64,000 nt of DNA from a virus (IMGVR_UViG_3300046777_002658:32001-96000); one strand, 5' to 3'; shown: positions 24,444 through 47,784, counted from the stretch's first letter. Made by a program: numbers and translations. Notes: generated by a model not told the origin, from the sequence alone.

Positions 24444-24746
24444 TTAACCTACTAAAACGTTAGCTGCACCTGGTCCTCTTGTAGCTCCAGTACAATGATT
24501 GCGATCGCCTACTCTATGAGCAGGTGAACCCTGGATTAAAACTTTAGAAGAGCCTGTAGTTAAAAAGCAAGGTCCACCGCAGAAAGCTAGGTCTCCAACT
24601 GTAGCAGGAGGTCTCCCAGCGACTAAAACCAGAGAAGCCTTACAGGAAGATATAAAACCACCAGGTACGTATGGTCCTCTTTTAGGATGAGGACAAACAG
24701 TAGTGTTAGGACAGCCAATTCCGTCAAACAGCAAAGCTTGAAACAT
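24444..24746 (-). CDS. PAAR-domain tail spike tip protein
   Basis: 100 aa; VLVAGRPPATVGD and VLIQGSPAHRVGD PAAR repeats plus Cys/His ligands. Confidence 0.85.
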   Translation of the reverse strand: MFQALLFDGIGCPNTTVCPHPKRGPYVPGGFISSCKASLVLVAGRPPATVGDLAFCGGPCFLTTGSSKVLIQGSPAHRVGDRNHCTGATRGPGAANVLVG

Positions 24747-29958: not shown

Positions 29959-30069
29959 GTTGTTTACAAACGATAGGTACTACAAGCTATAAAGCACCAT
30001 ACTCACGACGAACGGTTCGTCGTGGGTATTTTTTATAGTCCGACAGCCGCTTAGACCAAGGAGGTTCGC

Positions 30070-33000
30070 ATGGCTTATCGACAACAACAAACCCTAGTTT
30101 GTTCAGCTAAGGCAGAGGTTCGCCAGAATCAACCCAGCCATAGCGCCGTTGATACAGCCGCGCCTTCTGGTCAAACTAACTGTTCGGGTAACGAAAACAA
30201 TTCTTCAAAGGTTTTAACCATGTCTTATTCCATGTCCGCTTTGTTACTTTCGTTGTCTATTGTCGTTAAAAGCGTAAAGAAGGTCGCTCCTTCTATGTCT
30301 ATGAGAAATAAAGTAGCAAGAGCCTCCAGGAAGGCTCAACAACGTTTGGCACGAGCCAAGCGCCAAGCCAGACAAGTCAAGAATGGCTGGCTGCGCTCCT
30401 CAGCGTATCAGAAGCTGTGTAGAGAGGCTGATCACGCCTCTCGTATCAGCTGCATCACTCCACCCGCCAGTAGTGCTGGTAAAGCTGGTTCATCCAGCAG
30501 ACCTATTGTTAAATACTCCCGCCTATCAGATGGCGAAGGGGTATATGCCTTGACCCCAGCAATCCGAGTGCACAGAACCTTTGTGGCGCCGGTCACACGC
30601 AGGGAACGACACCTTGCAGCTAGAGAGCAGCTTAAGGCTGCGGGACTGCTGCCTAACCAAGCCCCTGCTCTAGGCAAAGCTCTCAAGGAGCAACGTAAGG
30701 CTAAAGCCAAAGTTAAGTCCTTAACCTTTAGTCCCGTCGCACGTCCACGGGATATAGAAAAAGCTGCCCAGCAGCTAGAGAAAGCTGCTGCCAAAGCAGC
30801 AAGGCTTTCTGAAGTGGTTAAGGTTGCTGGGCACGCAGTAAGCAAGAAAAAAGAACAGAGAGAGGAAATCTTTGTTCAGAAAGTTGAGGCAGTAACCGCC
30901 CCTCCAACTCTCTTAAAACTGGCCGCAAGATGCCAACGGCTAAGACAGAGATATTACAAAAGTCAAGACGAGCAAGACTACAAAGTCTGGCAAGAAGCAG
31001 AGGAAGATTATGCCTTTCTCTGCAAGAAAAAAGAACAGAGAGAGGAAATCTTTGTTCAAGAGGTTGTCACTCCAGATGACTTCCTAGCGCAGTTGGAGTT
31101 CTTAAGAACTCAGCTAGACCAAAATATGGCGCCTCCTGTTGTGCCACAAGAGTTTGCTACTGCAGCAGCAGAGATTGTGGATGACTACAAAGCCCAGGCA
31201 GAAGCCACAGGCACAAAGGATATGACCATGCTTATGTCCCTTTCATCCCCCATCAAAAACTCTGCTGGAGAGGATGTACAGGTTATAACCATTACAGGTA
31301 ACTGGAGTGGCAACGAGATTGACCCACAACTAAAAGCAGCCAGTAAAGATGTGATGGTGAACTTAGTGGGCAAGAACAAACTGCAAAAAGCAGAGTTCAC
31401 AAAACGAGGCTTTGTTCTTGTTACACAAGAGTGGTATTGTTTACCACTAGAGCAAAATAAACAACTAATTAAGGAAACACCAGTGAGACCACCAATTGTT
31501 TCCAGAACCAGCTCAAACCCACCAAAGCTGGTTAAAACAGACAGGGCTGATGGTGTTAAGTACCTGCACCTTTACCCTAACAGTGTTACACCCAAAAACA
31601 TTAAGGAACTTCTAGCCGAGCCCAAAGAGCTAGAAGTGCTTGTTAACATTAGCTCTGAACGGCTAATAGTTGAGAACCGGGATAAGTTTGTAGAGTTTCT
31701 CAGAGCTAATGGCTTTGAGAATTACTCTACTCACGCTGACTGGTTAGTCCTGCCAGCAGGTAGAAAGTTTGCAGAAAGAGTAGTTAAAGCTGGGGTTGTT
31801 TTCTCTGAAGAAGAGGAGTCATTTAACAAACTGTGGGTAACAGTTGATGGGGTTGACTTAGTAGAAGCTACCTTAGCTCCTCGCAAACCAACAGAAAATA
31901 TGGATGATATAGAAAATGAAGAGTTGTGGAACCGATTGGGTATAGCAGAAGCTGTACGCCAAGCAGTTGCTACAGCTCTTTCTGATTATCTGTATGCTGA
32001 TGTTTGGTTTAGCTATGACACAAGCATATCTCTGGAAGTAACTGAGCTTTTAGCAGAGTTTGGCTTTGCTTCTAAGTATGACTGCTTCTTGTTAAAACCA
32101 GCATTAAGAGAGCCAGTTAACAAGGATGTCAAATCTATGTACATCACAGTACATACAAAAACCAAAGCTGGTGTAGCTTCAGGTTCTTTCACTGTGGGTG
32201 ACACCACTATCCCAGTGGAAGTAGACCAAAAAGCTACAGAGCCAGCTAACAGACTGCTCTGTGTTAAGCAAGCAATCGCTTACGCTATTAACGCTGGGGC
32301 AAAGGCTGTTTCGGTAGAAGTCAGCCACGCTAACTATGACCTGAACAAGTTAGCTGCATGGAAAGCTGCTGGCTTTAAAGGCAAGTCTAATGTTGAGTTG
32401 CTAAAAGATATTGAGTCTCTGACTCACTACCTTTCTGTTACCTGGGTAAACCCTAAGAACAAAGCCAAAGAAGTGGCTAATACTGTAGTAAGAGAAACTG
32501 TGGCACAAGTAACAAAGGTGCAGGCTTCCGTAACCACATCCCATAAAGTAATTGGTGGAGAGGCTTATGCAGAAGAAGGCTTACTGTATTACCCTAAAAT
32601 CCTGTTTAAAGAAACCAGAGACTTACTGCTTGAAGATCTTCAAGCAGTTCTTGACAGTGGTGCTGTTGAGAAAACCAGCTTTGGTCCCTACCAGTACACC
32701 TGTTTAGGTGACTACTACTGGACATGGGAAAACAAGAAGGGTGTCTACTCTACCACTCAACCAAATGGCTCTCCTGTCGCAGCTGTACCAAAGCGGCTGA
32801 GAGAAATTGTTGAAGTCTGGTTAAATGGAGAGTTAAAAGTTTGGGAGGGTCAGTACGTAGTAGAATCTTGCCTTGTAAACTTCTACGAAGGCAAGCAGAA
32901 GCTAAACTGCCATCAAGACATCTCTGAAGAGATTGATGCTCCTATTGTCTCTTTCTCCTTTGGTGCTACTGGTCGTTTCCTCATTCGTGAGGGAGCTCGC

Positions 33001-36000
33001 ACTGGTCGTATCTCTCATGAGTTCACTTTAAGTGACTCTGACTTACTTGTTATGTATGGCAAGCACAGATACTGCTGGCATGAGTATGCTGGCAACATTG
33101 AATCTGGTACAAGGATAAACTTAACCTTCCGCATGGTTAAGAAGCCTGTAGTAACCCAACCAGAGGTAAGAACTGTGGAGCAAAGGACTGTAAAAACAGA
33201 ACGTCTTGTTGATACTACTGCAGTGAAGCAGAATCAACAGCCTGCAGCAAGAACTGTTCAGGATAGAGTAAGGGTTAACCCAGACTTCAAGCCTCAACCC
33301 AGAGCAAAAACCTTGCCGGAGCCTGGTTTGCTACCTCAGTCAGAGGTTGGCAGAATCAGTGGCACTCCTCAAGGTTGCTCTCACATCTTTGACTTTAAAA
33401 ACAATGAGTCTAAGAAAGGTCTTGATGAGGTTATTGTAGCAGCTTTCGCTGTAAGGTTAGACCCCGTTAAAGGGCAGCCTGTAGAGTGTAACATTAACAC
33501 TCCCTCATATGCTTATAACGATGAGTTTACTCACTACGGGTATGAAGATACTCTTACCACTAAAAAGGGTGAGAATATGAATGTTATAAGCTTGGGTGCA
33601 GCCGCTACAAAGGCTCTACCAGCTCATCTGACACCAATTATACTTTCTGTTTGCAACCACTGTTTAAATGGTGTGCGAGAAGAGTTTATACCCACAGCTC
33701 TATCATCAGTGAACAGAGTTAACAAGAAGGCTAATCTGCAGATTATTCTTGGGCAACCAGGTGGTGAATCCTGCTTGACCAAAGAGAAAGCCATCCAGGC
33801 ACCAGAATCTAGCTCTAGACAAAAGATGGGAGCAGCTATACTAGAAGGTGAGTCTAAAGAAATCCCTTCCGTAATATTCCACGATGACGGACAGGGACAT
33901 ACTCCCACGTTTGTTAAGTTAGAATTTTCTGGAGATGGTCTAGAAACTATTCTTGCAGACGGTAAGAGACACATCTTTATCGTAGTTGCTTGGTACGACA
34001 AGAGCAAGCAAACTTACTTTGAGAAGGGGGGTAAGCAGTACAGAATCTACCCCCACACTGCTAGTGTCTTCCATGTTGATGACTTAGAAGCTGTCTTTGG
34101 TGGTCAGAAAGTATTTAAGTTTGATGAAAGAGCTCTTCTAGGGTTATCAGCAGAGCCTGTAGTTGAGGCTAAAGCTGTTAAACCAGAGGTTAAAGCTCTT
34201 AACAGACCTCTTATCAAACCAGAACCAACAAAAGCAACCTCTGAAGAGGTTACAGAAGTTCAACAGTCTGTTGATAAGGCAAATCTAGCCAAAGAGCTGG
34301 CAGATCTTCACAAAGCCACCAGATTAAAAGGTCTTCCACTGACCAAAGGTCTAACAGAAGAAGACTTAGAGAGCATATTTGTTTGCATGAGTCCTGATGG
34401 TCAGATAGCTCACAGAACTCTAAGCTACATCAAGTCCAGAACCGATGGCAAACCTGTGCAGCTGTTTGATTGGACTAAAGCTGATGTTCTTAAGGTAGCA
34501 AAAGTTTTTGTAGACCTTTTATCGCCTACAAAAGCAACAGCAGATCAACAGGTGTTCCGCTACCGCAATACTGAAGAGGGCTTGTTGCTTTCCTTTGACG
34601 CTGGAACTATTGAGTTCTTGATAGGCAATGATGGTCGTGCTTATAATGCTGCTGATGGTCGTGCCTTTGAGCAAGGCATGGAGCTGATAGGGTACAACGC
34701 TTTAGATATGTCTTGGTGGGACTCTCCAGAGTATGCTAAAGCTAAAGCAGCACTAGCCGCTGCGGGTAAGAAAGAACCTGAAAAAGATGTTTCTTACTTC
34801 CAAATAGTTAATGGAGAGGTTCAGACCAGAGAGGAGTACAAACCTGAAATCACAGATGTTTGTTTCTCCTCCTCCATCGGTAAGTTCATGCAGGCTTTCT
34901 GTGCTTACTTATTGATGTTTGCTCAAAGCAAGAACAACACTCGGGGGGGCTTGGGTGACAACTTTAAGATTCTTTTGAACAAGTGCGAGAGTGTTATCTC
35001 TATGACCGAAGGAGATATCCTTGGTCAAAATGGAGGTTTCTTGTACTCTGTGCAAAACAGTCCTAAACTGTACGTTCACAGAGAGCAGTGTGACATATTT
35101 GCACTAGAAGAAGACAAGCTGAAAGACTTGGCTAATTCAGTGGCAACAGTAGTCAAGGGTTATGATAAAAAGCCACCAGAAGAGATGCTCAAAGTGTCTT
35201 CCACTGACACTCAGTCTCTAGCTATGAAAGAAGCTTTCAAGAAGTATCCTGCTTTGGGCTTCCACTTTGCTAAGGGTACTTTTATCAATGGTCTGACCCA
35301 TCTCAGACTAGCTACTCTTCAAAAGTATGCTCCAAACTTGTTTAATAAGACTCTGCAACTAACAGGGTTATCAGTTGAGGCTGCTGTTGAAAGTGTTGTC
35401 TCTTTAACTCTAAAAGCTTCTAAGGGTGCTAAACGAGCAACTTTAGCCTTAGCCAGAGCTGTTGAAGTGTTAGGAGAAGTGAAAGCTGGCTGGGCTTTCT
35501 ATGGTCAAGAGAAGGTGCTGACAGGCTGGCTTGTGCAAGAGTGTATGGCTCCTACATTTGTCATGGCTCCTGGTATGTCCTTCTTCTTAGGCAATGAGGA
35601 GGAGAAACCAGTTGCTTTAGTCAAGAAGACTCAGACACAAAACTACCCCAAGTTCTTGGCTAGTAACCTTGCTGAGGCTGTGAGCATGACAGGCGTTACT
35701 GAGTATCAAAGATGCCTGGCAGATCACAGACCCACTCAAACCTATGATGAGGTTTCAGCAACCTACCGCATCACCTTTGATAAAGAGGTAAAGCTAATCA
35801 AAGGCACAGAAATTGCTTTTGTTAAAAAGGAAGAGGGTCAGGGAGCCGATGCCGTCATTATTTTCAATGACAACGAGAGAGCCACTCTCAATGAGATAAC
35901 CTGGAGAGTCCATAAGGATCTTGTAGGTGAGTCAGTCTTGGTAGTCAACTACTCTTACACCCTACACCACCGCAACCCTAAACTGCGTGGTGTCATCAAA

Positions 36001-39000
36001 ACCATGATGGCTTCCTGCAGTAAAGAGTTGTTGTACAACTTCTTTAATGAGCCAAAGTTAACAGCTTTGGGATTAAAGGACATCAAGCTAGTATGCCCGC
36101 AGGATACTATCAAGTCTGATATGCTGTACTCTTGGCTAATGGTGATAGGTAACACTATCAGACACAACGACCCAACTAACCCTCACATTGCTAAGTTGAT
36201 TAGCTTAAGAGATCAACTCAATGAAGAGATGATGGGTGGTGCTGATTACGACCCTGACACCATTGTCATTAACCCAGCAGCAGTAGTAGCTGGTCTCTAC
36301 TCTGACTTGATTGCTTATTTTGTTAAGCACTTTGGTCATTCCTTATGGATGCACGTTCAACAACCAGAAGACCAAGGAGAGATCATGAATCGCCTGTATG
36401 TTGACCGCGTTGCCCAAAAAGCTGGCTGGGTAGAAGTACCTAAGATAGCTTGGGGTGAGTATGAGGAGGCTCTAGCTACAGCTAGACGTATGGAAGGCTA
36501 TACAGTCAAGCTATACGCAGAGTCAGTTGATTATCTAAAGAATGACAAGCAGAATGCTTTGTTGTTTACTTTAGACGCTGATGGAGTGGTAGTTGAATAC
36601 TTCCATCGTTCGTTCTGTTTTGTGGGTGCTGAAGGAGCACCTGTCTATGGTGTAGAGCTATTCGAGTCTAGCACTGTGGCTGAGGCTATCTCTGACTCCA
36701 GACATATGCCACCATCTGTGCGTTCACTCTCTCGCATGGAAGGAGTTGCTTTTGATGATGCTTGGGCGCTTCTAAACGCTGGTAAAGAGAAGATGTTTAT
36801 GTCTTTGGTGATTGCTGGAATGTCATCCTGTGACAAGTTCAACTGCTCTAAGACAATAACAATCCTAGAGCGTGGTGCTGAGAAGGACAAGAACCTGATT
36901 CTCTCTCCAGAAGACAAGGATTATTTCAATAGCATTTTAGTTGAGAACAAAATCAGCTTGGATTTCCATGAAGAGGAGCAGTTTAAAGCTGTAGCTTATG
37001 CGTTCAGAGATATTGTGTTTGTAGCTAAAGGCAAGACCTACTGGCTACCTGCTTTGTTTGCTATCAACAGCTTGAAGTCTGAAAACTCTACAAACAACCT
37101 TGCTCAACAGTTCTTTAGAGATATTCTTGTTGAGTGTCTAGCTGGCAGAACTGTGCCCGCAATAGAAGGTTCAAGAGCTGCTGGTATCTTGGATAGTCTA
37201 TGTGACTCTGCTTCTACCAAGAAGTTAATCACTGCTGCTGATAATATGGCAGCCAAGCGGATTGCTCTGGCTCACATTCCTGCTGGAGAGATTCATATTC
37301 TCAAGAGTACACATCCTGCCAGTAACTACCAAAACCTGCTCAGACACAAGTTTGACTTGAAGAGCGTAGAGGCTGGTAAGTCTACTATCTTTGTTCACAA
37401 CTCTCGCGCTCCTCTAACAGATGGTTGTCTGTTAAAGCTTGTAATAGTAACAGAAGAGCAAAACAGTAAGAACTTCTGGAAGTTAGACTCTGACAGCTTT
37501 GCTCTTGGGAGTATGGGTAACGGCATGGACTTTGGTGACTTTGACGGTGACGGTCACTATTTTGTTCAGCTTGTGGGCACTGACTATACAGTATCTACCT
37601 TTGACAGCATTGCTGACTTTATCACTGATGCTGTTGGGTACAACATTTTCAACACCTATGCCAACCCAGAGAATAAGAAAGGAGAGCCAAACGAAGCTTA
37701 CCTAGCTGACCACTACAACATCAAGAAGTGGTCTAAGGTTGATGAAACCTTATGCAATATGGGAGTCAAGAAGGCTACAAAGTCTAGTGCTACCTACTTG
37801 ATGTATAACCAGAATGCGCGTGAGATGCAAGCCAAAGCAACTGGCATTGCATACTCTGTGTATATGTGGTCTGAACACCTTGTAGACATCCTTCTAGCGT
37901 ACAAGAAGCTAGGCGGTGTTTTACCATTTGGTTTTGAAGCTGCTGCTGATGGTAGTTTAGTAGCCCCTATCTCTCAAGTGTACGAAGTTATTCTTGGTGG
38001 ATTTTCAGACCCTGCTTGGGCAGTCTACACCAAATACTTCCTCAAAATGAAGGAAGGTGAGCGCACAGTGTTTGACCATAACTTAGCCGAGTTTAACAAA
38101 GACTTGATGGCTATGGGCATCACTGGTCAAAAGCAAGCAGGGTTTAGTGCTCTGATGTTTGCTTCTTACCACTTATTCTTTTTAGAGAAGTGGGGTGAGT
38201 TCAATGACTATGAAGTAGACATGGTTACTAAGAACCCACTACCTTTAGAACTAAAAGGTATGTTAGCCTGCGCGTTGGTTTCCTTTGAGCTGATGCGAGG
38301 TAAGTTCCAAGGGTTTGTTGGTGCTCTGGAAGTCGAGAAAGGTGGTAAGGTGACAGGTCACAAGACTGCTATGAACTTTGCTAGAACCTTCCTATTAAAC
38401 AATCCAGGCATGGTGAGTGAGTCATTAGTTTGTAAACAACTAGCTCAAACTATTGAGGTTTGTAATCACCTGCTAGAAGGTAAGCCTCGCCCAGAAAGAA
38501 CTCTTGCAACACCAGGAGTTATTCAAGAGCGCACTGTAGCTGTTCCTACTTCTAACTTGTCTGATGAGGCTTTACAGTATTTCTTAACTAAAGTAGGTGC
38601 ATCTGCTGTGGTTAAGGAGACTAATGACTCTGATGATGAAGGTGGCAGCAAGGTTAGTGCAGAACCTAATACTCCTGACAATGGAGATGGTGGTGCAGCT
38701 GTAGAAGCTATAGACTATGCTGCTTATCTAGAAACTGAAGAAGTTGCTGCTCCTACAATTGAAGAGCTTGTGTCTGTTAGTTCTGCGGTAGTTGAAGAAT
38801 ACTACTCTGAGTCAGAGCTAGAAGAGCCAGAGTTTGCTGCTACCCCAGCTGTTCTTACAACATCTGAACCAAGCAGCTCACAGTATGAGTTTGATGCAGA
38901 TGGTTTTCTTGTAAATTGGCTAGACCACGCGCTTGCCACTATAAACTGGCAAGAAGAAACTCTTGTGATTGACTACACAGGTTCTAAACCTTGTTACTTA

Positions 39001-41826
39001 CTCAAGGGTGAAGGTCTCAAGTTGCACTCTTTAGTATCAAAAGGTTGGGGAGGAGCCTACTACTTTGAGGGCTTAGGAGAAGATAAAAAGGCTCCAGTCA
39101 TCTTTATGGATCAAAGTGTTGAAAGAACCGTGAAGGCAGACCAAGAGTTTAATGAGTTAGTGAGTTCTTGGGCTGAGTGGGCTGGAGAAACTATCGAGGC
39201 GCCAGAAGAGTTCTCAAAAGTCCTGATGGTCAGAGGTGAGGTAATAATCATTGAAGATGAAGATGAAGAAGAGCCAGTACAATCAGAGGTAATAGAGAAT
39301 GGAACAAAACAGAAGATGGCGACGTTAATGCAAGTGGTAGAACAACTACCAGAGTCTGCTTTAGATAAGCTACTAGCTGAGGGTGAAAGGCTACTAGCAG
39401 AATTAACCAAAACTAAAGAGCCAGTAAGAGAGGCTCTTAAAACAATAGAACCTACTGTTACCTGTACTTCCTGCTTAACAGTAGCAGAACCAGTTACTGA
39501 TGAAGCACCCTCTATAGACATACCTAGTGAAGGGACACAAAAGCAGTCAATAGTTAGTTTTACCTCCAGAACTAAGAGGGCTGACAAACCAGAAGTAACG
39601 AACAGTTCGTCAAGAGAGATTCTTCAAGCTGAGTCTGTTGTAGAAAATGTTGAAGTTGTAAAAGCTCATCCTTTAGATGGTCTTGCACCTTTGAGGTCTT
39701 CCACAGCAAAACACATGATTAAAGACATAGCTATGGCTGCTGTGGCTACTCAGTTCATTGGTACAAGTGCTGTATCTAAACCTTCTAGCACAGAGCTTTA
39801 CAGACAAGCCTGGGCTGATTGGAAAAGTGGTTGTGCCAACACAGGTGTCTACACTGCTGCTGACGTAGTAATGGTATCTGGTAACGGCTTGGGGAGGGCT
39901 ACAGAGGCTCAAATAGTAGAAACCTTTGCAAAGAGCTATATCCCCTACCTGTTGTTGGTAATCAATGCCAAAGCCACAGTAGTAGTTGGTGACTGTCCTG
40001 GTATGGACTGTTGTGTCAGAGATTACTTAGTGGGGCATGGCTATCAAAATACATGGGTTGCTGCCAAGATTGGTGGTTATAACAGACTCACACCTCCCAC
40101 CCAGCGAGAAAGAAAACTTGAGAGAGCTGTAGTTAAACAGTCTGTAGAAGCTGTAAAGATTCAACCAGAAGGAGACTGGGTTGAGGCTCTTGTTAGTAAG
40201 TTAGAGCCTTGGACTGGTAACCAGATAAAGAAAGCTCTAGCAACTCTTAGCTCTGAGCAGTTAGAGGCTGCTAGAATCATCATCCAACACGCTCTAAGCA
40301 ACACTACCGCTAAAGTTGCAGAGTTAGACCCTAAAGACGTGGTGGGTGGTCACATCCTCACTGGTAAAGCTGGTACTGGTAAAACCTACGCTACTCTTGT
40401 AATCATCATAGTCCTAGACTTGCTAGGCTTTCGTGTGGTAGCTTGCGGAACCACGGGTCTGGCTAGTCAAAATCTCAAAAACTCTTCTGGTACAATAAAC
40501 AGGGTTTTAAGCTTGGGTACAGGCTTTGAAGAGAGAAAAGATACTGAGGGAAACCTGCTGCCAAGAACTGAGGCAGACATTAGCCAGATAATACTCAAAA
40601 TGAGTAAGGATGGTAAAGTAGCCAAAAGACTATCTGAGCAAAGCAACAACAAGAACTATATAGGAGTAGTTCTGCTAGTTGATGAAGCCTTTATGCTTGG
40701 AGGAGATTTAGGTATCGCCGCTGCTGAGGGCTTAAAGACCATTGTTGGGCTAGAAGCTCAAAATGGTAAAGTCCGTCAGAGACCTATTCAGTTATTAATG
40801 GTTGGAGATCCTAAGCAGCTAGAACCAGTAAAAGACAGAATGATATTCGAGGAAGGTGAGTTCCTAGAATATTCTGACAGCACAGAAGTTCAGAAATACC
40901 ACGCTTTTACAGACCGTCTGAATCTAAAGGTTATTAAGCTAGAGAAGAACGAAAGGCAGTCTGGTGATACTGCTTTTGGCTTAGAGTTGGACTTGCTGGG
41001 AGAGGGTAAAGCTAAAACAGACCTGAGTAACTGTCCTGTTTTGTTGAGTAGATTTAAGGCTTCTCTCTCATGCCAACCCGCAGATGCTTTGCATATCATC
41101 TACAATAATGATGAAGTTGCCAAGTTTAATAAGTCTAAGCTAGACGAGCTTGTCAAAAAAGGTGCTTTCAAAAGAAAGTTTGAGGCAATTATTGACTCTA
41201 GTAGATGTGGCGAGAGTGAATTGCTATCTTACGTTGCTCCTACTCCTAGAACTTTAGAGTTAGTAGTGGGTGCTCCTGTCAGAGTAACCCAAAACATCCC
41301 TAAGAACGATGGCACAGACAATCTGTTAGTAGCTAATGGCGAGCGCGGAGTTGTGGCAAGCATGACCAAAGACAAAGTGACCGTCAAGTTCAAGGATGGT
41401 CGCTTTGAGGAGCTAGAAGCTGTAGAATCCAGAAAAATTCCGGTAGACGAAAATGGTGCACCAATAGGATCTTTCAGACAGCTTCCCTTATGCTTGTGTT
41501 GGGCTACTACTTTTCATGGTAGCCAAGGTCAAACCTACCCTAAAGGTGAACCTGTCATAGTGCATATGTACTCTCGTAAGGGAGGTAAGCATGATGGAGA
41601 GCTTCAAAGAGTATGGTCTAACAACGCGTTCTACGTTGCTTGTAGCCGCGTAACCCGCTCTAAAGACTTATTCTTTTACACCGGGTTGGGTGTTGATGAA
41701 AAAGCTGAAGGAGTGACTGATGAGGAGTTCACCAAGCAAAGGATGAACACTTACTTCAATCACTTCAAGCAAAGCTACAGATTCAATGAGAAGGCTATTG
41801 CTTGGTTAAACAAGCAGTCCTGCTAG
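30070..41826 (+). CDS. Giant 3918-aa multidomain protein: AlkB-like dioxygenase + single-chain two-barrel RNA polymerase + possible SLOG domain + Pif1/RecD-like SF1B helicase
   Basis: AAGGAGG RBS. HQD (32911), H (33079), RINLTFR (33112-33132) = AlkB. SRAP (37402-37413) 44 aa before DFDGD (37537-37551) = RNAP active centre. GKAGTGKT (40363-40386), DEAFM (40681), GDPKQLEPV, HGSQGQT, YVACSRV = helicase motifs. Confidence 0.8.
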   Translation: MAYRQQQTLVCSAKAEVRQNQPSHSAVDTAAPSGQTNCSGNENNSSKVLTMSYSMSALLLSLSIVVKSVKKVAPSMSMRNKVARASRKAQQRLARAKRQARQVKNGWLRSSAYQKLCREADHASRISCITPPASSAGKAGSSSRPIVKYSRLSDGEGVYALTPAIRVHRTFVAPVTRRERHLAAREQLKAAGLLPNQAPALGKALKEQRKAKAKVKSLTFSPVARPRDIEKAAQQLEKAAAKAARLSEVVKVAGHAVSKKKEQREEIFVQKVEAVTAPPTLLKLAARCQRLRQRYYKSQDEQDYKVWQEAEEDYAFLCKKKEQREEIFVQEVVTPDDFLAQLEFLRTQLDQNMAPPVVPQEFATAAAEIVDDYKAQAEATGTKDMTMLMSLSSPIKNSAGEDVQVITITGNWSGNEIDPQLKAASKDVMVNLVGKNKLQKAEFTKRGFVLVTQEWYCLPLEQNKQLIKETPVRPPIVSRTSSNPPKLVKTDRADGVKYLHLYPNSVTPKNIKELLAEPKELEVLVNISSERLIVENRDKFVEFLRANGFENYSTHADWLVLPAGRKFAERVVKAGVVFSEEEESFNKLWVTVDGVDLVEATLAPRKPTENMDDIENEELWNRLGIAEAVRQAVATALSDYLYADVWFSYDTSISLEVTELLAEFGFASKYDCFLLKPALREPVNKDVKSMYITVHTKTKAGVASGSFTVGDTTIPVEVDQKATEPANRLLCVKQAIAYAINAGAKAVSVEVSHANYDLNKLAAWKAAGFKGKSNVELLKDIESLTHYLSVTWVNPKNKAKEVANTVVRETVAQVTKVQASVTTSHKVIGGEAYAEEGLLYYPKILFKETRDLLLEDLQAVLDSGAVEKTSFGPYQYTCLGDYYWTWENKKGVYSTTQPNGSPVAAVPKRLREIVEVWLNGELKVWEGQYVVESCLVNFYEGKQKLNCHQDISEEIDAPIVSFSFGATGRFLIREGARTGRISHEFTLSDSDLLVMYGKHRYCWHEYAGNIESGTRINLTFRMVKKPVVTQPEVRTVEQRTVKTERLVDTTAVKQNQQPAARTVQDRVRVNPDFKPQPRAKTLPEPGLLPQSEVGRISGTPQGCSHIFDFKNNESKKGLDEVIVAAFAVRLDPVKGQPVECNINTPSYAYNDEFTHYGYEDTLTTKKGENMNVISLGAAATKALPAHLTPIILSVCNHCLNGVREEFIPTALSSVNRVNKKANLQIILGQPGGESCLTKEKAIQAPESSSRQKMGAAILEGESKEIPSVIFHDDGQGHTPTFVKLEFSGDGLETILADGKRHIFIVVAWYDKSKQTYFEKGGKQYRIYPHTASVFHVDDLEAVFGGQKVFKFDERALLGLSAEPVVEAKAVKPEVKALNRPLIKPEPTKATSEEVTEVQQSVDKANLAKELADLHKATRLKGLPLTKGLTEEDLESIFVCMSPDGQIAHRTLSYIKSRTDGKPVQLFDWTKADVLKVAKVFVDLLSPTKATADQQVFRYRNTEEGLLLSFDAGTIEFLIGNDGRAYNAADGRAFEQGMELIGYNALDMSWWDSPEYAKAKAALAAAGKKEPEKDVSYFQIVNGEVQTREEYKPEITDVCFSSSIGKFMQAFCAYLLMFAQSKNNTRGGLGDNFKILLNKCESVISMTEGDILGQNGGFLYSVQNSPKLYVHREQCDIFALEEDKLKDLANSVATVVKGYDKKPPEEMLKVSSTDTQSLAMKEAFKKYPALGFHFAKGTFINGLTHLRLATLQKYAPNLFNKTLQLTGLSVEAAVESVVSLTLKASKGAKRATLALARAVEVLGEVKAGWAFYGQEKVLTGWLVQECMAPTFVMAPGMSFFLGNEEEKPVALVKKTQTQNYPKFLASNLAEAVSMTGVTEYQRCLADHRPTQTYDEVSATYRITFDKEVKLIKGTEIAFVKKEEGQGADAVIIFNDNERATLNEITWRVHKDLVGESVLVVNYSYTLHHRNPKLRGVIKTMMASCSKELLYNFFNEPKLTALGLKDIKLVCPQDTIKSDMLYSWLMVIGNTIRHNDPTNPHIAKLISLRDQLNEEMMGGADYDPDTIVINPAAVVAGLYSDLIAYFVKHFGHSLWMHVQQPEDQGEIMNRLYVDRVAQKAGWVEVPKIAWGEYEEALATARRMEGYTVKLYAESVDYLKNDKQNALLFTLDADGVVVEYFHRSFCFVGAEGAPVYGVELFESSTVAEAISDSRHMPPSVRSLSRMEGVAFDDAWALLNAGKEKMFMSLVIAGMSSCDKFNCSKTITILERGAEKDKNLILSPEDKDYFNSILVENKISLDFHEEEQFKAVAYAFRDIVFVAKGKTYWLPALFAINSLKSENSTNNLAQQFFRDILVECLAGRTVPAIEGSRAAGILDSLCDSASTKKLITAADNMAAKRIALAHIPAGEIHILKSTHPASNYQNLLRHKFDLKSVEAGKSTIFVHNSRAPLTDGCLLKLVIVTEEQNSKNFWKLDSDSFALGSMGNGMDFGDFDGDGHYFVQLVGTDYTVSTFDSIADFITDAVGYNIFNTYANPENKKGEPNEAYLADHYNIKKWSKVDETLCNMGVKKATKSSATYLMYNQNAREMQAKATGIAYSVYMWSEHLVDILLAYKKLGGVLPFGFEAAADGSLVAPISQVYEVILGGFSDPAWAVYTKYFLKMKEGERTVFDHNLAEFNKDLMAMGITGQKQAGFSALMFASYHLFFLEKWGEFNDYEVDMVTKNPLPLELKGMLACALVSFELMRGKFQGFVGALEVEKGGKVTGHKTAMNFARTFLLNNPGMVSESLVCKQLAQTIEVCNHLLEGKPRPERTLATPGVIQERTVAVPTSNLSDEALQYFLTKVGASAVVKETNDSDDEGGSKVSAEPNTPDNGDGGAAVEAIDYAAYLETEEVAAPTIEELVSVSSAVVEEYYSESELEEPEFAATPAVLTTSEPSSSQYEFDADGFLVNWLDHALATINWQEETLVIDYTGSKPCYLLKGEGLKLHSLVSKGWGGAYYFEGLGEDKKAPVIFMDQSVERTVKADQEFNELVSSWAEWAGETIEAPEEFSKVLMVRGEVIIIEDEDEEEPVQSEVIENGTKQKMATLMQVVEQLPESALDKLLAEGERLLAELTKTKEPVREALKTIEPTVTCTSCLTVAEPVTDEAPSIDIPSEGTQKQSIVSFTSRTKRADKPEVTNSSSREILQAESVVENVEVVKAHPLDGLAPLRSSTAKHMIKDIAMAAVATQFIGTSAVSKPSSTELYRQAWADWKSGCANTGVYTAADVVMVSGNGLGRATEAQIVETFAKSYIPYLLLVINAKATVVVGDCPGMDCCVRDYLVGHGYQNTWVAAKIGGYNRLTPPTQRERKLERAVVKQSVEAVKIQPEGDWVEALVSKLEPWTGNQIKKALATLSSEQLEAARIIIQHALSNTTAKVAELDPKDVVGGHILTGKAGTGKTYATLVIIIVLDLLGFRVVACGTTGLASQNLKNSSGTINRVLSLGTGFEERKDTEGNLLPRTEADISQIILKMSKDGKVAKRLSEQSNNKNYIGVVLLVDEAFMLGGDLGIAAAEGLKTIVGLEAQNGKVRQRPIQLLMVGDPKQLEPVKDRMIFEEGEFLEYSDSTEVQKYHAFTDRLNLKVIKLEKNERQSGDTAFGLELDLLGEGKAKTDLSNCPVLLSRFKASLSCQPADALHIIYNNDEVAKFNKSKLDELVKKGAFKRKFEAIIDSSRCGESELLSYVAPTPRTLELVVGAPVRVTQNIPKNDGTDNLLVANGERGVVASMTKDKVTVKFKDGRFEELEAVESRKIPVDENGAPIGSFRQLPLCLCWATTFHGSQGQTYPKGEPVIVHMYSRKGGKHDGELQRVWSNNAFYVACSRVTRSKDLFFYTGLGVDEKAEGVTDEEFTKQRMNTYFNHFKQSYRFNEKAIAWLNKQSC

Positions 41827-42054
41827 TAAACTGAGGGGTTCCTCAACCCCTCCTGTCCAGCTTTATTAAACACCATTGACAGAAAGTCCCAATGTCCTGT
41901 ACCCTTAATATAGAAAAAAAGAATAAAGAGTGTAAACACCACTTTGAGAAGCTAGTTTGATATCTTTCACCCCTCAGATATCTGGTGATAACTAGCTTCT
42001 CTTTCTTTAGAAAAAAAGAAGAGTGTTTGCAATATTCTTTAAAGGTTTCAAATC

Positions 42055-42684
42055 ATGTCTTTATTACAATTGTCTCTAGAAGCTGGTGTTCCAAAATTCT
42101 GTGTTGACCAAATTGCTCAAGGTGATGGTCGCATTACTTTTGAGGCATCTGATTTGGAAATGTTGACCTTTAAGGTCTGGAACGTCTATGAGGACACACC
42201 AGGTCAATTCCAGATGATGGTGACCTTCCAAGGTCATTGTCTTGGTGAGTATGAGTTGCAAAGTCTACCTGAAGACCTTCACACCTTAGAGCAGCAGCCT
42301 GGGTATTTTAAACTATCTGGGTATATCCTGGAAGTTGCGGAAGACGTGCCTGCTGAGGTAGCTGCAGCAATGTCTGCTTTTGCTCAATGGAGCAAAGAAA
42401 ACAAGGGTGTCAAAAACCCTGCTAATCGTCCTCACTTATTTTATAAAGTGGCTAGTGCAGAAGCGTTAATTCAGTTAGTTGTGTGTTCTAGCTATAACAA
42501 GTCTACCAAAGTTAACGAGCTCAGCTTTAACGGCTGGGCTTACCAAGGCCTGGAATGGGCTGGAAACGGAATAGGTAGCATCAAAGCTACCAAGACTGGT
42601 ATAAGTGGTTATACCAGAAAGGTGCTGCCTCCAGCACCTGTAGCTCCCCCAGCTCCCCCAGCTCTTACTCTTAAGTCACGATAG
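42055..42684 (+). CDS. Hypothetical protein
   Basis: 209 aa, ATG 44 bp after the class II motif at 42011. Confidence 0.7.
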   Translation: MSLLQLSLEAGVPKFCVDQIAQGDGRITFEASDLEMLTFKVWNVYEDTPGQFQMMVTFQGHCLGEYELQSLPEDLHTLEQQPGYFKLSGYILEVAEDVPAEVAAAMSAFAQWSKENKGVKNPANRPHLFYKVASAEALIQLVVCSSYNKSTKVNELSFNGWAYQGLEWAGNGIGSIKATKTGISGYTRKVLPPAPVAPPAPPALTLKSR

Positions 42685-42880
42685 GGGGTAATAAACCAAT
42701 TGATCTACTAAAGACCAATTGGTTTATTATTATTTTGTTGTACACAGCCCGGCGGGGACTACAGAGCCTCCAGCGATCGCTCTTTGGACAGGTGACAGAG
42801 AGAAAGGGGTGTACATCTAAATCTTCCTTTCTTAGAAAAAAAGAAGAGGGAATGGAATTATTAGTATTAAAGGAACAATC

Positions 42881-43294
42881 ATGACTAACGTATACTTCTT
42901 CTCCCGCCACGAAGCTCAAGAAGCAATGGTATCTGACTTGGGTGGAACTATCACTCAACAGTTCCGAGGCACAATCTCTAATGTTAAGCGTGTTGGTGAC
43001 GGCATTGAGTTCCAAGAGATTCCATTAGGTGAAACAGCTCCTGTGGTACACACAATTCCTGCCGATTCTATAGTCGTTGCTGTAGCTCCTCTGCCTTTAC
43101 AAGAGGCTTGGCTGAGAGCTGGTGTTTCTGTGTTCCTTGCGCCACAGAACAAGCGCGAGACCACAGAGTCTGGTGAAGTAGTTTTTAACTACGCAGGGCT
43201 GTTACAAGTCCTGAAGATTGAAGTAGTAACCCAACAGTGGGTTGGTACTGCTGTTAGTCTAGAGGACAAGCACGCCGAGCGTAGTGCTTTATAA
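42881..43294 (+). CDS. Hypothetical protein
   Basis: 137 aa, AAGGA RBS, 45 bp after a class II motif. Confidence 0.7.
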   Translation: MTNVYFFSRHEAQEAMVSDLGGTITQQFRGTISNVKRVGDGIEFQEIPLGETAPVVHTIPADSIVVAVAPLPLQEAWLRAGVSVFLAPQNKRETTESGEVVFNYAGLLQVLKIEVVTQQWVGTAVSLEDKHAERSAL

Positions 43295-43375
43295 AGAATG
43301 TTGGGAGCGATCGCGCTCTCACTTTCTTTTAAAGAAAAAAAGAATAGTGAGTGGAACTTATTTTTTTAAAAGTAT

Positions 43376-43585
43376 ATGTGGTCAACAACTATATCCAACC
43401 CACCTCTACCAGGATGGGTGCTACCAGATGGTAGCAAAATACTTGAAGTATTTGATGGAGATGTAAACGCCCTCCACCAGGTGTACATGGGTATAGCAAA
43501 GGTTGAATCCCCAACGGGGGAAGTAAGAATTGTGAGGGCTGACTGGTGGGTATCACCGGATGGCTCTCTGTTTATTGAGCTTTGA
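43376..43585 (+). CDS. Hypothetical small protein
   Basis: 69 aa, 41 bp after a class II motif. Confidence 0.55.
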   Translation: MWSTTISNPPLPGWVLPDGSKILEVFDGDVNALHQVYMGIAKVESPTGEVRIVRADWWVSPDGSLFIEL

Positions 43586-43651
43586 ATTTAGTTAACTCAT
43601 TAGAGTATTAACCTAATGAGTTAACTCTTTTTTTTGATATAAAAAAGAATA

Positions 43652-43861
43652 GTGAATGAAATTATTAGTATTAAAGGAACAATCATGACAGAGCAAGAAA
43701 TTTTACAATTGGCTTCTCTTTTAGAAAGAGCCAAACAAGCATTAACCTCTCCCTCAGGCTGTTTGCCTGAGTTCATTTATGTAGAGAAAGGTAAGGGGGA
43801 AATAAAGGGTTACACACCCTATATTGCAAATGGGGGGGCAAACTTTCTTTTCCCTCTCTGA
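43652..43861 (+). CDS. Hypothetical small protein; probable start ATG 43685
   Basis: Leader identical to that of 42881. Confidence 0.55.
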   Translation: MNEIISIKGTIMTEQEILQLASLLERAKQALTSPSGCLPEFIYVEKGKGEIKGYTPYIANGGANFLFPL

Positions 43862-43991
43862 GGAGGGAGAGGTAATTAAAGTAGAATCCGCAATCTACTA
43901 ATATTAATGGTTAAAGAAGAAGAAAAGAATTAACTCCTTCTTTAACCATTAATATTTTTTTTGTAAAAAAAAGAATAGTGGGTGCAATATT

Positions 43992-44192
43992 ATGGAGTTT
44001 TCTATGACTCGCGAAGAAGCTTTAAACACTAACTTAGTGCAAACCGGCGACTACTTCGTCTACAAAGTGGTCCAGGTTAAAGAAACAACAGTAGTTGTAA
44101 CTCCCTACAAGGGGGAGCAGTGGGGTGAGCAGTGGGGTGAGCACAATGAGTACAGGCTAGACAGCCTGTACCCCTACGATGGGGCTTTATAG
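43992..44192 (+). CDS. Hypothetical small protein
   Basis: 66 aa after a class II motif; EQWG repeated. Confidence 0.55.
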   Translation: MEFSMTREEALNTNLVQTGDYFVYKVVQVKETTVVVTPYKGEQWGEQWGEHNEYRLDSLYPYDGAL

Positions 44193-44316
44193 TAACTGGG
44201 GGAAGCAATCCCCTTTTAAGAAAAAAAAGATAAATGAATGAAGTTTGTAACTCTAGGAGTTATCATGACCGCATTTATTTATATTCTCTTAGTTTACTTT
44301 TATCTGTGGGCTATGG

Positions 44317-44559
44317 ATGCCCACACTCGAGATTAAAGGGAAAAAGAAAGTAATGAGAAAAGTAAGTAATTTAGAGTTTAACCTAGCAACCAGCGGACAC
44401 GCCTGGCTGCTGGAATTAGAAGTAAACAACCAGGTAGTAGCCTCCCAGCTACTACTACTTGAGGAGCCGCCGCTCCTCAAACAGCAGAGGGAGTTTCGTG
44501 CGGAACACCCCCTTCAACATGGGGGTGTTGTGAAGTTTCATCCTGTAGTAAGGGAGTAA
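44317..44559 (+). CDS. Hypothetical small protein
   Basis: 80 aa, followed by a hairpin. Confidence 0.45.
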   Translation: MPTLEIKGKKKVMRKVSNLEFNLATSGHAWLLELEVNNQVVASQLLLLEEPPLLKQQREFRAEHPLQHGGVVKFHPVVRE

Positions 44560-44623
44560 CTTTGATTGCCTATCTAATCTCTGGATAGGCAATCGCGCTC
44601 TCTTTCAAAGAAAAAAAAGAATA

Positions 44624-44977
44624 GTGGATGGAATTGTCACACCAAAACTTACAATGAGAAAAACATCAGAAGAGTTGAAAGAAATAAGAAAACAGAAGAG
44701 AATAGCAGCCTGTCAAGCTGCTATAGAAAAATATAACAGGTTGGACAAACCTGTTTATGCTTACACCACAAGTTGTGGTGACCCGTGGGTTCCAGAAAAG
44801 GAAGTTGCCCTTCCCCTATATTGGGAGGAGGAACACAAGGAACTAAAGTTTTACACAGATTTTCTGTGGGGGATACTCAATGCTATTAACTATGAAATCC
44901 CTGACTGTGATTCTTCAACAGTAGTATTTAGGGAAAGAGGGGAGGGGGGAAAGATTGAAGAAATTATAACGGAGTGA
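44624..44977 (+). CDS. Hypothetical protein; probable start ATG 44654
   Basis: ATG 43 bp after a class II motif. Confidence 0.6.
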   Translation: MDGIVTPKLTMRKTSEELKEIRKQKRIAACQAAIEKYNRLDKPVYAYTTSCGDPWVPEKEVALPLYWEEEHKELKFYTDFLWGILNAINYEIPDCDSSTVVFRERGEGGKIEEIITE

Positions 44978-45058
44978 AGGAGGGGCTGGCGCGGGCTGGC
45001 TCTTTTTCTTCAAAAAAAGATAAGTGAATGAAATAATATTTTCTAAGGAGAAGCAATC

Positions 45059-45592
45059 ATGGCTATTTTAAACTTTAGAGGTCACACACAAGAAGTAGAG
45101 ACTCTTAACAACCAAGAGTTCACTGCTCCCGTTGTTAGAGTAGTAAACTCCAACAGTTACTGGTATAGAGCTTACTTAGAAGATGGCAGTATAGTTCAGT
45201 TCATACTTCCCCAAGTAGAAGACAGTTTTAAGTTTATAAACTGTCTTTTAAAATATAAAGGACATGAACTTCATGTCCTTCTCAAAGAGGAAGAGTTTCC
45301 TGACTCTTCGATAGTCTCCATCTCCTTTACTAAAAGATACTGCAAAGCAGTATATAAAAATGGAGAGGCAGTGGAGTTTAGGTTTTTCAAGTACGAAGAT
45401 TCTATCCCGTTTAGGGATAACTTTCCGCTTGAAAAATACAAAGCAGCCCTAGCTGCAAAAACAATGGTTGAGCAGGCTATCTTTGAATACCAAAAGGAGA
45501 TGGAAAAACTAGGAGCCGTGAACTGCTATGACTCGACAGAGTCGTGGTTAGAGATAGAAGATATTCCAGACTATGAGTGGAATCTCTTTTAA
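45059..45592 (+). CDS. Hypothetical protein
   Basis: 177 aa, AGGAG RBS, after a class II motif. Confidence 0.7.
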   Translation: MAILNFRGHTQEVETLNNQEFTAPVVRVVNSNSYWYRAYLEDGSIVQFILPQVEDSFKFINCLLKYKGHELHVLLKEEEFPDSSIVSISFTKRYCKAVYKNGEAVEFRFFKYEDSIPFRDNFPLEKYKAALAAKTMVEQAIFEYQKEMEKLGAVNCYDSTESWLEIEDIPDYEWNLF

Positions 45593-45702
45593 TCTGCGGA
45601 GTGCTGCAAGAACACCTTTTCTACCTATCTTCCATCACCAAGATAGGTAGAAGGCTTCCAGCCCTTTAAAGAAAAAAGATAAGTGAATGATAAGAAGAAG
45701 CA

Positions 45703-45963
45703 ATGATGTATAAACCTACAGCTTTTGAGAATGTAACTTATACATATACAGGTTATGACCTTGATGGTCAGCCTGTATATCAAAACGAACAGGGGGAGAG
45801 AACAACCCCCGAAGCTTTAATAGAGCAAGGGGCAACTGTGCCTCTTGGCAACACTGTTGTTCTAAAAGAACAACATGATGTCTGTGTCTACTGCGGCACA
45901 GACAACGGGCTCCACGGGGTTAGGAGGAGAGGCTACGAATGCTGCTCCTGCGGCAGTGCTTAA
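45703..45963 (+). CDS. Small zinc-ribbon protein
   Basis: CVYCG...CCSCGS C-terminal Cys pairs. Confidence 0.6.
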   Translation: MMYKPTAFENVTYTYTGYDLDGQPVYQNEQGERTTPEALIEQGATVPLGNTVVLKEQHDVCVYCGTDNGLHGVRRRGYECCSCGSA

Positions 45964-46005
45964 CCTCCCCTCCCTCTAACTCAACGTAAGGTAAAGGAAG
46001 AAATA

Positions 46006-46257
46006 ATGAACACTATCCGCGTGAAAGAAGAAAATTTATCATCTATTGTTCAAGGTTTACAAGAAGCTGGCTTTTCAGCCAAGGCTTCTAAATGCACCCC
46101 TCTGAGTCAGTGGGAGCATGATCAAAACTCTGATTATGACTTCGAGCATTGGACGTTCAATTCCCTCATTGGTATGAGGGGTATTGAAACCAATGCAAGT
46201 GGGAAGCAAGCCCACAAAGTCATTAAAGCCCTCAAAAAGGAGGGCAAAGCAAAATAA
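46006..46257 (+). CDS. Hypothetical small protein
   Basis: 83 aa, AAGGA RBS. Confidence 0.6.
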   Translation: MNTIRVKEENLSSIVQGLQEAGFSAKASKCTPLSQWEHDQNSDYDFEHWTFNSLIGMRGIETNASGKQAHKVIKALKKEGKAK

Positions 46258-46368
46258 TAAACATTGATTAGGGTTTAGGTAGTAGTTAGACCTCTTTAAC
46301 TACTACCTAAACCTTATTCTTTAGAAAAAAAAAGAATAGTGAGTGGAACTTATTAGTAAATTACAGCC

Positions 46369-47196
46369 ATGTCCATCAAGATAAAATTTCCCCAATTCTC
46401 ACACCACTCAGATGGCACTGTTTGGGTGCACCTTGATGGTGTGTATTGGCTAGACAAAAGTAACGAAAGATGGTTTGTATCGGGGGTTCACCCCCAAGGT
46501 ACCAACAGCCTTAGTTCTTGCAAAGGAGAGGTTGCCTCTCCGTTTTTCTTCAACCAGGAAACTGAAGAAGCTTTCCCTCTTTTCTTAGCTGCTATTGCGG
46601 CTAAGAAAGCAGAATTAAAAGCTTTCTCCCTCCAGACAGAGGGGATGGATAAGTTAGAAGCCATTAAGTTGGCAAGGGAACAGTTTGACATGAGTCTCAA
46701 AGAAGCCAAGGAATTGGTAGAAGGGTGCCCCAGAACTCGCTACTCTGTCACACCTCTCCCCGTAGAAGTTTTTCGGGTTGAGGAAAGCAACCACCCTACC
46801 GCAGAGGAGGATCAACTCTGCAGCGTGAAGGGTCTCTGGAGTGGGAAGATGACCCTTCCAGCTTCTCTACTGGCACAAGTAGAGGAACTGATTGATTGGC
46901 AAGAGCCGTTGCTTTCTGCAGACTTCGAGCCCTCCTTAGTCCAACTGTTGGACACAGGAGAATGCGTTGGAGAGACTGAAAAACTACTCCTGCGCTTCAA
47001 AGTTGATACAGAGGAGGAAACCACAAGCCTCTGTAGTTGGAAAATACGTGAAGAAGGAAAAGATTTGGCTCCTGACTTTTCCTGCCTGCGGGTAACCACG
47101 CTCGATGCAGCACCAGCCTTGTACTCTATGTACTTGGCAGGGAAAGCAGATGAAGCTGAACGTTGGAAACAGCGTTTAGCCCTATTAATCAAATAG
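46369..47196 (+). CDS. Protein containing a ribosomal bL12 C-terminal-like motif
   Basis: DKLEAIKLAREQFDMSLKEAKELVEGCP resembles the bL12 segment [27 protein letters not shown]. Confidence 0.55.
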   Translation: MSIKIKFPQFSHHSDGTVWVHLDGVYWLDKSNERWFVSGVHPQGTNSLSSCKGEVASPFFFNQETEEAFPLFLAAIAAKKAELKAFSLQTEGMDKLEAIKLAREQFDMSLKEAKELVEGCPRTRYSVTPLPVEVFRVEESNHPTAEEDQLCSVKGLWSGKMTLPASLLAQVEELIDWQEPLLSADFEPSLVQLLDTGECVGETEKLLLRFKVDTEEETTSLCSWKIREEGKDLAPDFSCLRVTTLDAAPALYSMYLAGKADEAERWKQRLALLIK

Positions 47197-47763: not shown

Positions 47764-47784
47764 TTTAAAAAAGTATAGAGTAGC

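Follow-up and report, generated by a model that had tools for sequence, protein, structure and literature searches.

AlkB-type dioxygenase domains occur in the replicases of plant RNA viruses, Flexiviridae and related (PMC544882), and free-standing genes of the AlkB-like type are found in a few jumbo phages (PMC7824862). Single-chain RNA polymerases (RNAPs) built on two barrels occur in phages (PMC2919709, PMC10770324). Here, we describe a protein of 3,918 amino acids (aa) from an uncultured freshwater phage in which an AlkB domain lies on the same chain as a polymerase-like core and a helicase. The protein is encoded in IMGVR_UViG_3300046777_002658:32001-96000, a stretch of 64,000 nucleotides, called the window hereafter, which corresponds to positions 32001-96000 of an IMG/VR virus record of 196,877 bp with an estimated completeness of 94%. 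To our knowledge, AlkB inside viral replicases was previously known only from plant RNA viruses, and full-text literature searches turned up no case of AlkB joined to a two-barrel polymerase or to a giant protein of the polymerase-helicase kind.

The plant-virus replicases and the phage protein are alike in that AlkB shares a chain with a helicase and with a polymerase encoded by the virus itself. They differ in that the virus here is a DNA phage, the order is AlkB-polymerase-helicase, and the helicase is a superfamily 1B (SF1B) enzyme of the Pif1/Dda-like type. Because the phage core appears to be of the two-barrel type and not a palm RNA-dependent RNA polymerase, and because the helicase is Pif1/Dda-like, the architecture is convergent and not homologous. 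An earlier reading of this DNA made from the sequence alone (the sequence-only reading) had drawn the parallel with plant RNA viruses as a convergent one, and in that sense the parallel is fair. The same idea would have arisen independently in a DNA phage, with a polymerase of a different superfamily and a helicase. By analogy, both layouts suggest that viral nucleic acid is protected during its synthesis.

Identity and active site of the AlkB domain

The sequence-only reading had placed an intact AlkB-like dioxygenase, with an HxD...H iron triad and RxNLTFR, at 32560-33135 of the window. This was borne out by translation of the giant open reading frame (ORF) and by a full-length Pfam match. 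The ORF, the domain and its catalytic motifs are as follows.

30070..41826 (+), giant ORF P0001, 3,918 aa, uninterrupted, with all domains inside (ORF translation)
32578..33132 (+), AlkB-type Fe(II)/2-oxoglutarate (2OG) dioxygenase domain, aa 837-1021 (Pfam PF13532, PDB AlkB matches, and the ratio of nonsynonymous to synonymous substitution rates, dN/dS)
32911..32919 (+), HxD iron ligands H948 and D950, as HQD (alignment to Escherichia coli AlkB)
33079..33081 (+), distal iron ligand H1004, in CWHEY (alignment to E. coli AlkB)
33112..33132 (+), RxNxTxR 2OG motif, RINLTFR, with R1015, N1017 and R1021 (alignment; conserved in 8/8 AlkB-bearing relatives)

The match to PF13532 (2OG-FeII_Oxy_2) covered the whole profile (1-194/194) and, with an E value of 1.9e-28 and 100.5 bits against a cut-off of 31.2, was far beyond chance. 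The Pfam envelope agreed with the range of aa ~830-1025 proposed earlier for the domain. When the domain was aligned to AlkB structures with HMMER, the iron triad H948, D950 and H1004 corresponded to H131, D133 and H187 of E. coli AlkB, and the further 2OG contacts N937 and Y939 corresponded to N120 and Y122. The aromatic residues of the nucleotide-recognition lid, W884 and Y893, corresponded to W69 and Y76, the base-stacking and backbone residues of the E. coli enzyme. The fold family, the iron triad, RxNxTxR, the N/Y contacts and the lid residues are thus common to the phage domain, E. coli AlkB and bacterial PF13532 proteins. From its intact catalytic residues, we infer that the domain would be catalytically competent.

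The phage domain differs from E. coli AlkB in being one part of a 3,918-aa chain and not a protein by itself, and in having Ser952 at the position of D135, a residue that in E. coli contacts the exocyclic amine of 1-methyladenine and 3-methylcytosine. Because this position is Ser here and varies among the AlkB-bearing relatives, the substrate of the domain may differ from the classical one. The NCBIfam AlkB equivalogs NF011930 and TIGR00568 gave 55.5 and 54.1 bits, respectively, and did not reach their cut-offs of 267 and 231; the domain is therefore a divergent member of the AlkB family and not an orthologue of E. coli AlkB.

The fusion is real and AlkB recurs in a family of giant proteins

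The genome encodes a contractile-tail phage, with a tail-sheath protein, long tail fibres, a Mu-like portal and an HK97-type capsid, together with a family A DNA polymerase interrupted by an intein, a UvsX-like recombinase and an rIIA-like protein. Near-identical DNA was present in freshwater, plankton and aquatic metagenomes from several independent studies; no RNA dataset was among the public runs listed as holding it. Contigs from three independent studies covered positions 31500-34500 of the window unbroken, both AlkB junctions included, and differed from it only by substitutions and by in-frame insertions or deletions of 9, 6 and 3 bases. Because these contigs span both junctions, the AlkB fusion is real, and an assembly chimera was ruled out. 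Neither the ORF nor its core had a DNA or protein match in the GenBank phage collection, and a search with peptide patterns found no IMG/VR match to the ORF.

A word-indexed search with core residues 2050-2800 returned 13 other giant proteins, and a profile of eight aligned core segments, run against 1.84 billion representatives, returned 87 clusters of proteins of ~1,200-4,500 aa. All ten family members that were looked up came from metagenomic contigs of at most ~205 kb. Two close relatives, P0004 and P0009 (~71-77% identity to the window protein when the gap is set aside), are missing precisely residues 821-1024, with the linkers joined directly, so AlkB is not needed for core function. AlkB lies N-terminal of the core in the window protein P0001 and in P0003, P0006, P0007, P0008 and P0012, the last of which is more distant (~43% identity). 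In the far more distant P0021 (aa 2740-2925), P0018 (aa 2893-3057) and P0025 (aa 2881-3080), it is placed after the core and before the helicase; in P0018, a NADAR domain immediately precedes it. The co-occurrence of AlkB with a core of the DFDGD type, put forward earlier as something to search for, is seen within a family of ~87 metagenomic protein clusters, in which AlkB recurs at two positions. As the alignments indicate, the AlkB cassette is repeatedly lost or moved within this family.

The HxD, the distal His and RxNxTxR were retained in all eight AlkB copies of the relatives, and dN/dS between the copies of the window and of loci L008 and L002 was 0.23-0.30, a sign of purifying selection. 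The AlkB domains of giant proteins matched each other with E values of 1e-33 to 1e-55, much more closely than they matched free-standing AlkB; the sole free-standing AlkB recovered had 33% identity (E value, 3e-6) in a limited search that relies on shared words. A word-based search for this AlkB in longer proteins, of up to 2,000 aa, found none. Between distant family members, AlkB was better conserved than the polymerase core. Because the catalytic residues are kept, dN/dS is low and these AlkB domains are mutually closest, the association of AlkB with the polymerase-helicase is old and maintained by selection.

The core is probably a single-chain two-barrel polymerase

The conserved core and its motifs are located as follows.

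34396..38502 (+), conserved core of the giant-protein family, aa 1443-2811 (invariant alignment columns; profile search)
35980..36120 (+), putative first-barrel motifs K1971-x-R1973-xxx-K1977 and D2012-xx-K2015-x-D2017 (family-wide counts; QDE-1-aligned part of the model)
37234..37626 (+), beta'-like double-psi beta-barrel (DPBB), aa 2389-2519, with R2446-x-P2448 and G-D2490-F-D2492-G-D2494 (invariance; DPBB matches)

DFDGD is found at aa 2490-2494 of the same ORF as AlkB, in the context NSRAPLTDG, ~40 residues, then GDFDGD. This context presumably resembles that of the cellular RNAP beta' barrel. The motifs are nearly invariant among the family hits. In the putative first barrel, K1971 was found in 80/80, R1973 in 79/80, K1977 in 76/80, D2012 in 83/84, K2015 in 82/84 and D2017 in 78/84; in the beta'-like barrel, R2446 was found in 84/87 and P2448 in 86/87, and the Asp residues of DxDGD, D2490, D2492 and D2494, in 82/83, 81/83 and 79/83, respectively.

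An AlphaFold model of aa 1930-2800, from which model residues are numbered, was made from an alignment of 49 family members and had a predicted local distance difference test score (pLDDT) of 90.2 and a predicted template modelling score (pTM) of 0.88. Foldseek gave no hit to the PDB at an E value of <=0.001, and its top 50 were nearly all RNAP largest subunits, phage non-virion RNAPs, RDR2 and QDE-1. In a search independent of Foldseek, the best match was QDE-1 (7y7p_A; Z, 9.1; root mean square deviation [rmsd], 5.7 A; 388 residues aligned). This alignment spans model residues 34-871, so both barrels are covered, and the near-invariant K1971, R1973 and K1977 fall inside the aligned region that starts at model residue 34. 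The next match was Pol I (7aoc_A; Z, 8.4; rmsd, 4.0; 250 aligned), with cellular beta'/Rpb1 at Z ~8.5, followed by Pol IV NRPD1, RDR2 (Z, 7.6; 357 aligned), P23-45 gp96 (Z, 7.1), P74 gp62 (Z, 6.5) and PolD (Z, 5.5). RNAP largest subunits aligned to model residues ~450-866, and isolated DPBB domains matched model residues 460-590, the barrel that holds RxP and DxDGD. A second structural run gave 417/1000 chains at Z>=5; among the 50 matches listed, 47 were RNAP largest subunits or QDE-1 and 3 were p97 N-domains.

The core had no match to any curated RNAP family in Pfam, PHROG and PDB sequence and profile searches, the PDB searches returning helicase and AlkB matches only, and an hhalign comparison of the family profile with phi14:2 gp66 was not significant. 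Families of the two-barrel superfamily commonly share only the DxDxD region (PMC10770324). The claim that AlkB is fused to an RNA polymerase thus draws its support from the two-barrel fold and the invariant motifs and not from sequence matching. Given the moderate Z scores and the invariant motifs in the right barrel, the core is very probably a single-chain two-barrel polymerase. By analogy with its structural matches, it would synthesize RNA on DNA templates.

The core resembles Neurospora crassa QDE-1, plant RDR2, the YonO-like proteins of SPbeta, gp96, gp64/gp62 and gp66 of the crAss-like phage phi14:2 in its RxP...DxDGD barrel and, probably, in a further barrel on the same chain with conserved basic residues. 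Thermus phage P23-45 gp96 is a virion RNAP fused to the tape measure, and gp64 and P74 gp62 are non-virion RNAPs. Compared with these single-chain enzymes, the phage protein is much larger and is fused to a helicase and AlkB; no accessory domain (AlkB, helicase, NADAR or DUF4326) linked to those RNAPs was found in the literature searched.

A helicase follows the core

C-terminal to the core, the protein continues with a linker and ends in the helicase.

38557..39639 (+), acidic, poorly conserved linker, aa 2830-3190; relatives hold DUF4326, NADAR or AlkB there (alignment)
40351..41772 (+), SF1B Pif1/Dda-like helicase, aa 3428-3901, with Walker A K3438 and Walker B D3538 (Pfam, PHROG, PDB)

The helicase scored 34 bits with AAA_30 (cut-off, 27) and 30.7 bits with AAA_19 (cut-off, 25.1). 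It matched the PHROG Dda-like family with an E value of 1.6e-35 and, with the family profile, Pif1 structures with an E value of 1.7e-15; the motifs GKAGTGKT and DEAF are present. The distant members P0018, P0021, P0022, P0050 and P0087 all end in an SF1B helicase. Because every distant member examined does so, the fusion of core and helicase appears to be widespread in the family.

Proposed function and alternatives

The arrangement suggests that removal of base damage or of base marks accompanies the copying or unwinding of the phage DNA. AlkB enzymes prefer single-stranded DNA and RNA, and N1 of adenine and N3 of cytosine can be alkylated only when single-stranded. Since a polymerase and a helicase produce single strands, the substrate of AlkB would be generated by its partners. 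We give about even chances to a repair reading, in which a single multi-enzyme phage protein uses its tethered AlkB to dealkylate the nucleic acid exposed by the polymerase and helicase. Flexible linkers would tether AlkB (aa 837-1021) to the polymerase core (aa ~1440-2810) and to the C-terminal 5'-3' helicase. The polymerase and helicase would lay bare single strands of DNA and generate RNA, both of which AlkB enzymes favour as substrates. With Fe(II), 2OG and O2, the tethered AlkB would then hydroxylate N-alkyl groups such as those of 1-methyladenine or 3-methylcytosine, and the alkyl group would leave as an aldehyde, so that the base could be restored in cis on the template, the displaced strand or the new RNA. 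Such restoration would prevent stalling or miscoding during phage transcription or replication, and the lesions would come from environmental or metabolic methylation. Transcription-coupled repair or the removal of base modifications, as proposed in the sequence-only reading, is plausible and made more likely by the purifying selection on AlkB and its recurrence at two positions.

Several points weigh against this repair reading. The clean deletion in P0004 and P0009 marks AlkB as dispensable. The assignment of the core as an RNAP draws on motifs and on Z scores of 7-9, which are moderate, values of 7-8 being common for unmatched models, and on no match to a curated RNAP family. The residue equivalent to E. 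coli D135 is a Ser at a variable position. Finally, the NADAR and DUF4326 domains found in the variable regions of relatives fit counter-defence as well as repair.

Counter-defence is a serious rival because the cassette is optional and because of these neighbouring domains. Between the core and the helicase, DUF4326 is found in most relatives (P0003-P0015 and P0018; loci L002-L008) and NADAR in P0013 and, adjoining AlkB, in P0018; the window protein has neither. NADAR and DUF4326 have been linked to ADP-ribose chemistry (PMC9503650, PMC11543638, PMC11125620), and NADARs reverse the DarT-catalyzed ADP-ribosylation of guanine in DNA (PMC11543638, PMC11125620). It is possible, if rather doubtful, that AlkB serves at the start of infection to undo, by the same oxidative dealkylation of single strands, lesions imposed by the host through a defence methyltransferase, an alkylating toxin or an alkylating metabolite. 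AlkB, NADAR and DUF4326 might then be interchangeable de-modification modules on a polymerase-helicase protein, a proposal that we make tentatively. The optional and patchy presence of AlkB is as expected of arms-race modules, and Iyer et al. proposed that sporadic phage AlkBs reset methyl marks and do not repair damage (PMC7824862). However, no anti-phage system acting by N1-adenine or N3-cytosine methylation or alkylation was found in the literature searched, and the co-occurrence of the domains is circumstantial. With similar reserve, one can picture an exchangeable on-board toolkit that erases host-inflicted marks on exposed strands, AlkB acting on N-alkyl groups and the NADAR and DUF4326 domains on ADP-ribose adducts. 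If true, counter-defence would be built into a transcription or unwinding machine, and nucleic-acid alkylation would be an anti-phage weapon in freshwater, possibly cyanobacterial, hosts.

A role in replication seems unlikely. The core would then be a primase or an origin-opening polymerase working with the helicase, much like a primase-helicase, and AlkB would clear the unwound template of blocking lesions ahead of the family A DNA polymerase. The conservation of the core-helicase fusion in distant members would suit such a role, as would the facts that two-barrel enzymes can be DNA polymerases, as PolD shows, and that the genome has no Toprim, Prim-Pol, DnaB or AAA_25 match. However, the genome has an ORF with a DnaG-type zinc ribbon at ~168 kb, and the structural matches to RNAPs and RNA interference polymerases were stronger than that to PolD. 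In addition, the giant gene heads an array of small genes with a common upstream motif, as expected of a transcriptase, and its homologue in the Microcystis phage MaMV-DC (see below) has no detected helicase Walker A motif.

Still less probable is a role in removing a regulatory methyl mark, N6-methyladenine or another, from host or phage DNA or RNA; that this would alter restriction-modification status or gene expression is likewise improbable. Some AlkB-family enzymes demethylate N6-methyladenine, and with a Ser in place of D135 the specificity may differ from that of E. coli AlkB. Iyer et al. raise the possibility of such erasers for phage AlkBs (PMC7824862). However, the domain is closest to bacterial AlkB and keeps lid residues of the W69/Y76 type, and no partner methyltransferase was observed next to it. 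That AlkB is a passenger, non-catalytic or decaying, which acts only as a structural spacer or binding module would fit the clean deletion in close relatives but is very improbable, as each copy has preserved the catalytic residues despite deep divergence, dN/dS is low, and AlkB is better conserved than the core between distant members.

The recurrence of the fusion suggests that, in nature, phages face a real barrier to gene expression in the methylation-type damage or marking of single-stranded nucleic acid. The natural versions of one protein with and without AlkB form an experimental pair for studying lesion removal coupled to transcription or unwinding.

Relatives of the giant protein in Microcystis phages

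In a viral structure library, the best match to the core was an uncharacterised protein of the Microcystis phage MaMV-DC (Foldseek E value, 2e-15; template modelling score, 0.54-0.55). This match likely comes from ORF65L. In the MaMV-DC genome (KF356199; L020, L021), ORF65L is a protein of 1,677 aa with RTP...GDADGD, and hhalign aligned it to the family profile across the DxDGD barrel with an E value of 2e-4. A look for a Walker A motif (G-x-G-K-S/T) in ORF65L found none, so the helicase is apparently missing from it. Synteny with the window extends to the MaMV-DC head and tail genes, at 21-39% identity. The genome also encodes ORF82L, of 3,560 aa, in which IQRSPPPG...GDFDGD matches the motif of a second giant protein of the window (see below). 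Shorter homologues of both giants, annotated as hypothetical, are thus found in the Fukuivirus members Ma-LMM01 (gp064 and gp080) and MaMV-DC (ORF65L and ORF82L). By these comparisons, the closest cultured relatives of the core are the Microcystis phages MaMV-DC and Ma-LMM01.

In the published transcriptome of Ma-LMM01, the giant gene gp064 is a middle-class transcript, and the ten small genes directly downstream of it (gp054-gp063) form the earliest class. The layout, a giant gene followed by small genes, is alike in Ma-LMM01 and in the window. The timing of gp064 would allow the protein to be packaged in the virion but is no proof of it. That study assumed that the host sigma-70 RNAP alone transcribes the phage. 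The homologues of the core likely represent a previously unrecognised RNAP of the bloom phages Ma-LMM01 and MaMV-DC, whose temporal programme was formerly attributed to the host polymerase alone.

The giant protein also resembles the polyvalent proteins described by Iyer et al. in 2017 (PMC5512222), which are very large multi-domain proteins with swappable nucleic-acid enzyme modules and likely act early. That survey makes no mention of AlkB, dioxygenase, DPBB, Pif1 or NADAR (PMC5512222), and Pfam scans of the giant protein found no MuF, portal or other head-packaging domain.

Upstream motifs and a second giant protein

Two features outside the giant ORF bear on its gene layout.

30043..30054 (+), motif ACAGCCGCTTAG, which begins 27 nucleotides and ends 16 nucleotides before the giant start codon, downstream of a GC hairpin with a T run
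9425-21187 (+), second giant ORF, 3,920 aa, in the tape-measure position

The pattern ACAGCCGC[GT]TAG has four copies in the 197-kb genome, all on the plus strand, at window positions 27368, 27429, 27785 and 30043, and a variant of this motif lies at the equivalent place in L002 and L003. A different, A-rich motif resembling AGAAAAAAGAATAGTG lies upstream of some two dozen small genes that follow the giant on the plus strand, with about 25 sites in window 42000-58300 (+). The two motif classes partition the genes, and the same gene arrangement is found in relatives L003, L005 and L008. Both motifs are candidate promoters of phage-encoded polymerases.

The second giant protein had no Pfam or PHROG hit. 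It contains RQGSP, ~60 residues, then LGDNDGD at aa 2727, a motif conserved in L008, and when it was compared with the core family by hhalign, only the motif aligned, without significance. It may be a tape-measure-fused virion RNAP like P23-45 gp96. The giant layout and the two motifs resemble the two-polymerase scheme of the Thermus phage P23-45 (PMC10770324).

Other features

The N-terminal 820 aa of the giant protein held no recognisable domain. An internal direct repeat lies in this region (aa ~259-331; window 30845-31040, plus strand) and encodes KKKEQREEIFVQ twice; the resemblance of its DNA to the A-rich upstream motif is a coincidence of coding. A strongly conserved domain precedes the helicase.

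39652..40104 (+), conserved domain just before the helicase, aa 3195-3345 (nearly invariant columns)

This domain matched no Pfam, NCBIfam or PDB profile, and the labels SLOG and RNase H for it and for N-terminal regions had no support from the same three sources. The giant of L004 is divided between an ORF of 3,054 aa and another of 1,055 aa or more, truncated where the contig stops. A recoding of TAG to Gln in L007 was ruled out as an artefact of the gene caller, the gene ending in a terminal TAG followed by TAA. A weak DnaB_C hit in the genome proved to be the UvsX-like recombinase and not DnaB.

The intein of the family A DNA polymerase carries an HNH endonuclease and lies inside the exonuclease ORF (L015, genome 135360-137768, outside the window); another ORF with an intein splicing domain is found at genome 12238-14457 (L017, also outside the window). 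Between the two giants, a minus-strand ORF of 100 aa (window 24444-24746) has homologues in L003 and L006. A scan of the relatives' ORFs gave a PAAR-motif hit in these homologues, which fits the spike tip of a contractile tail.

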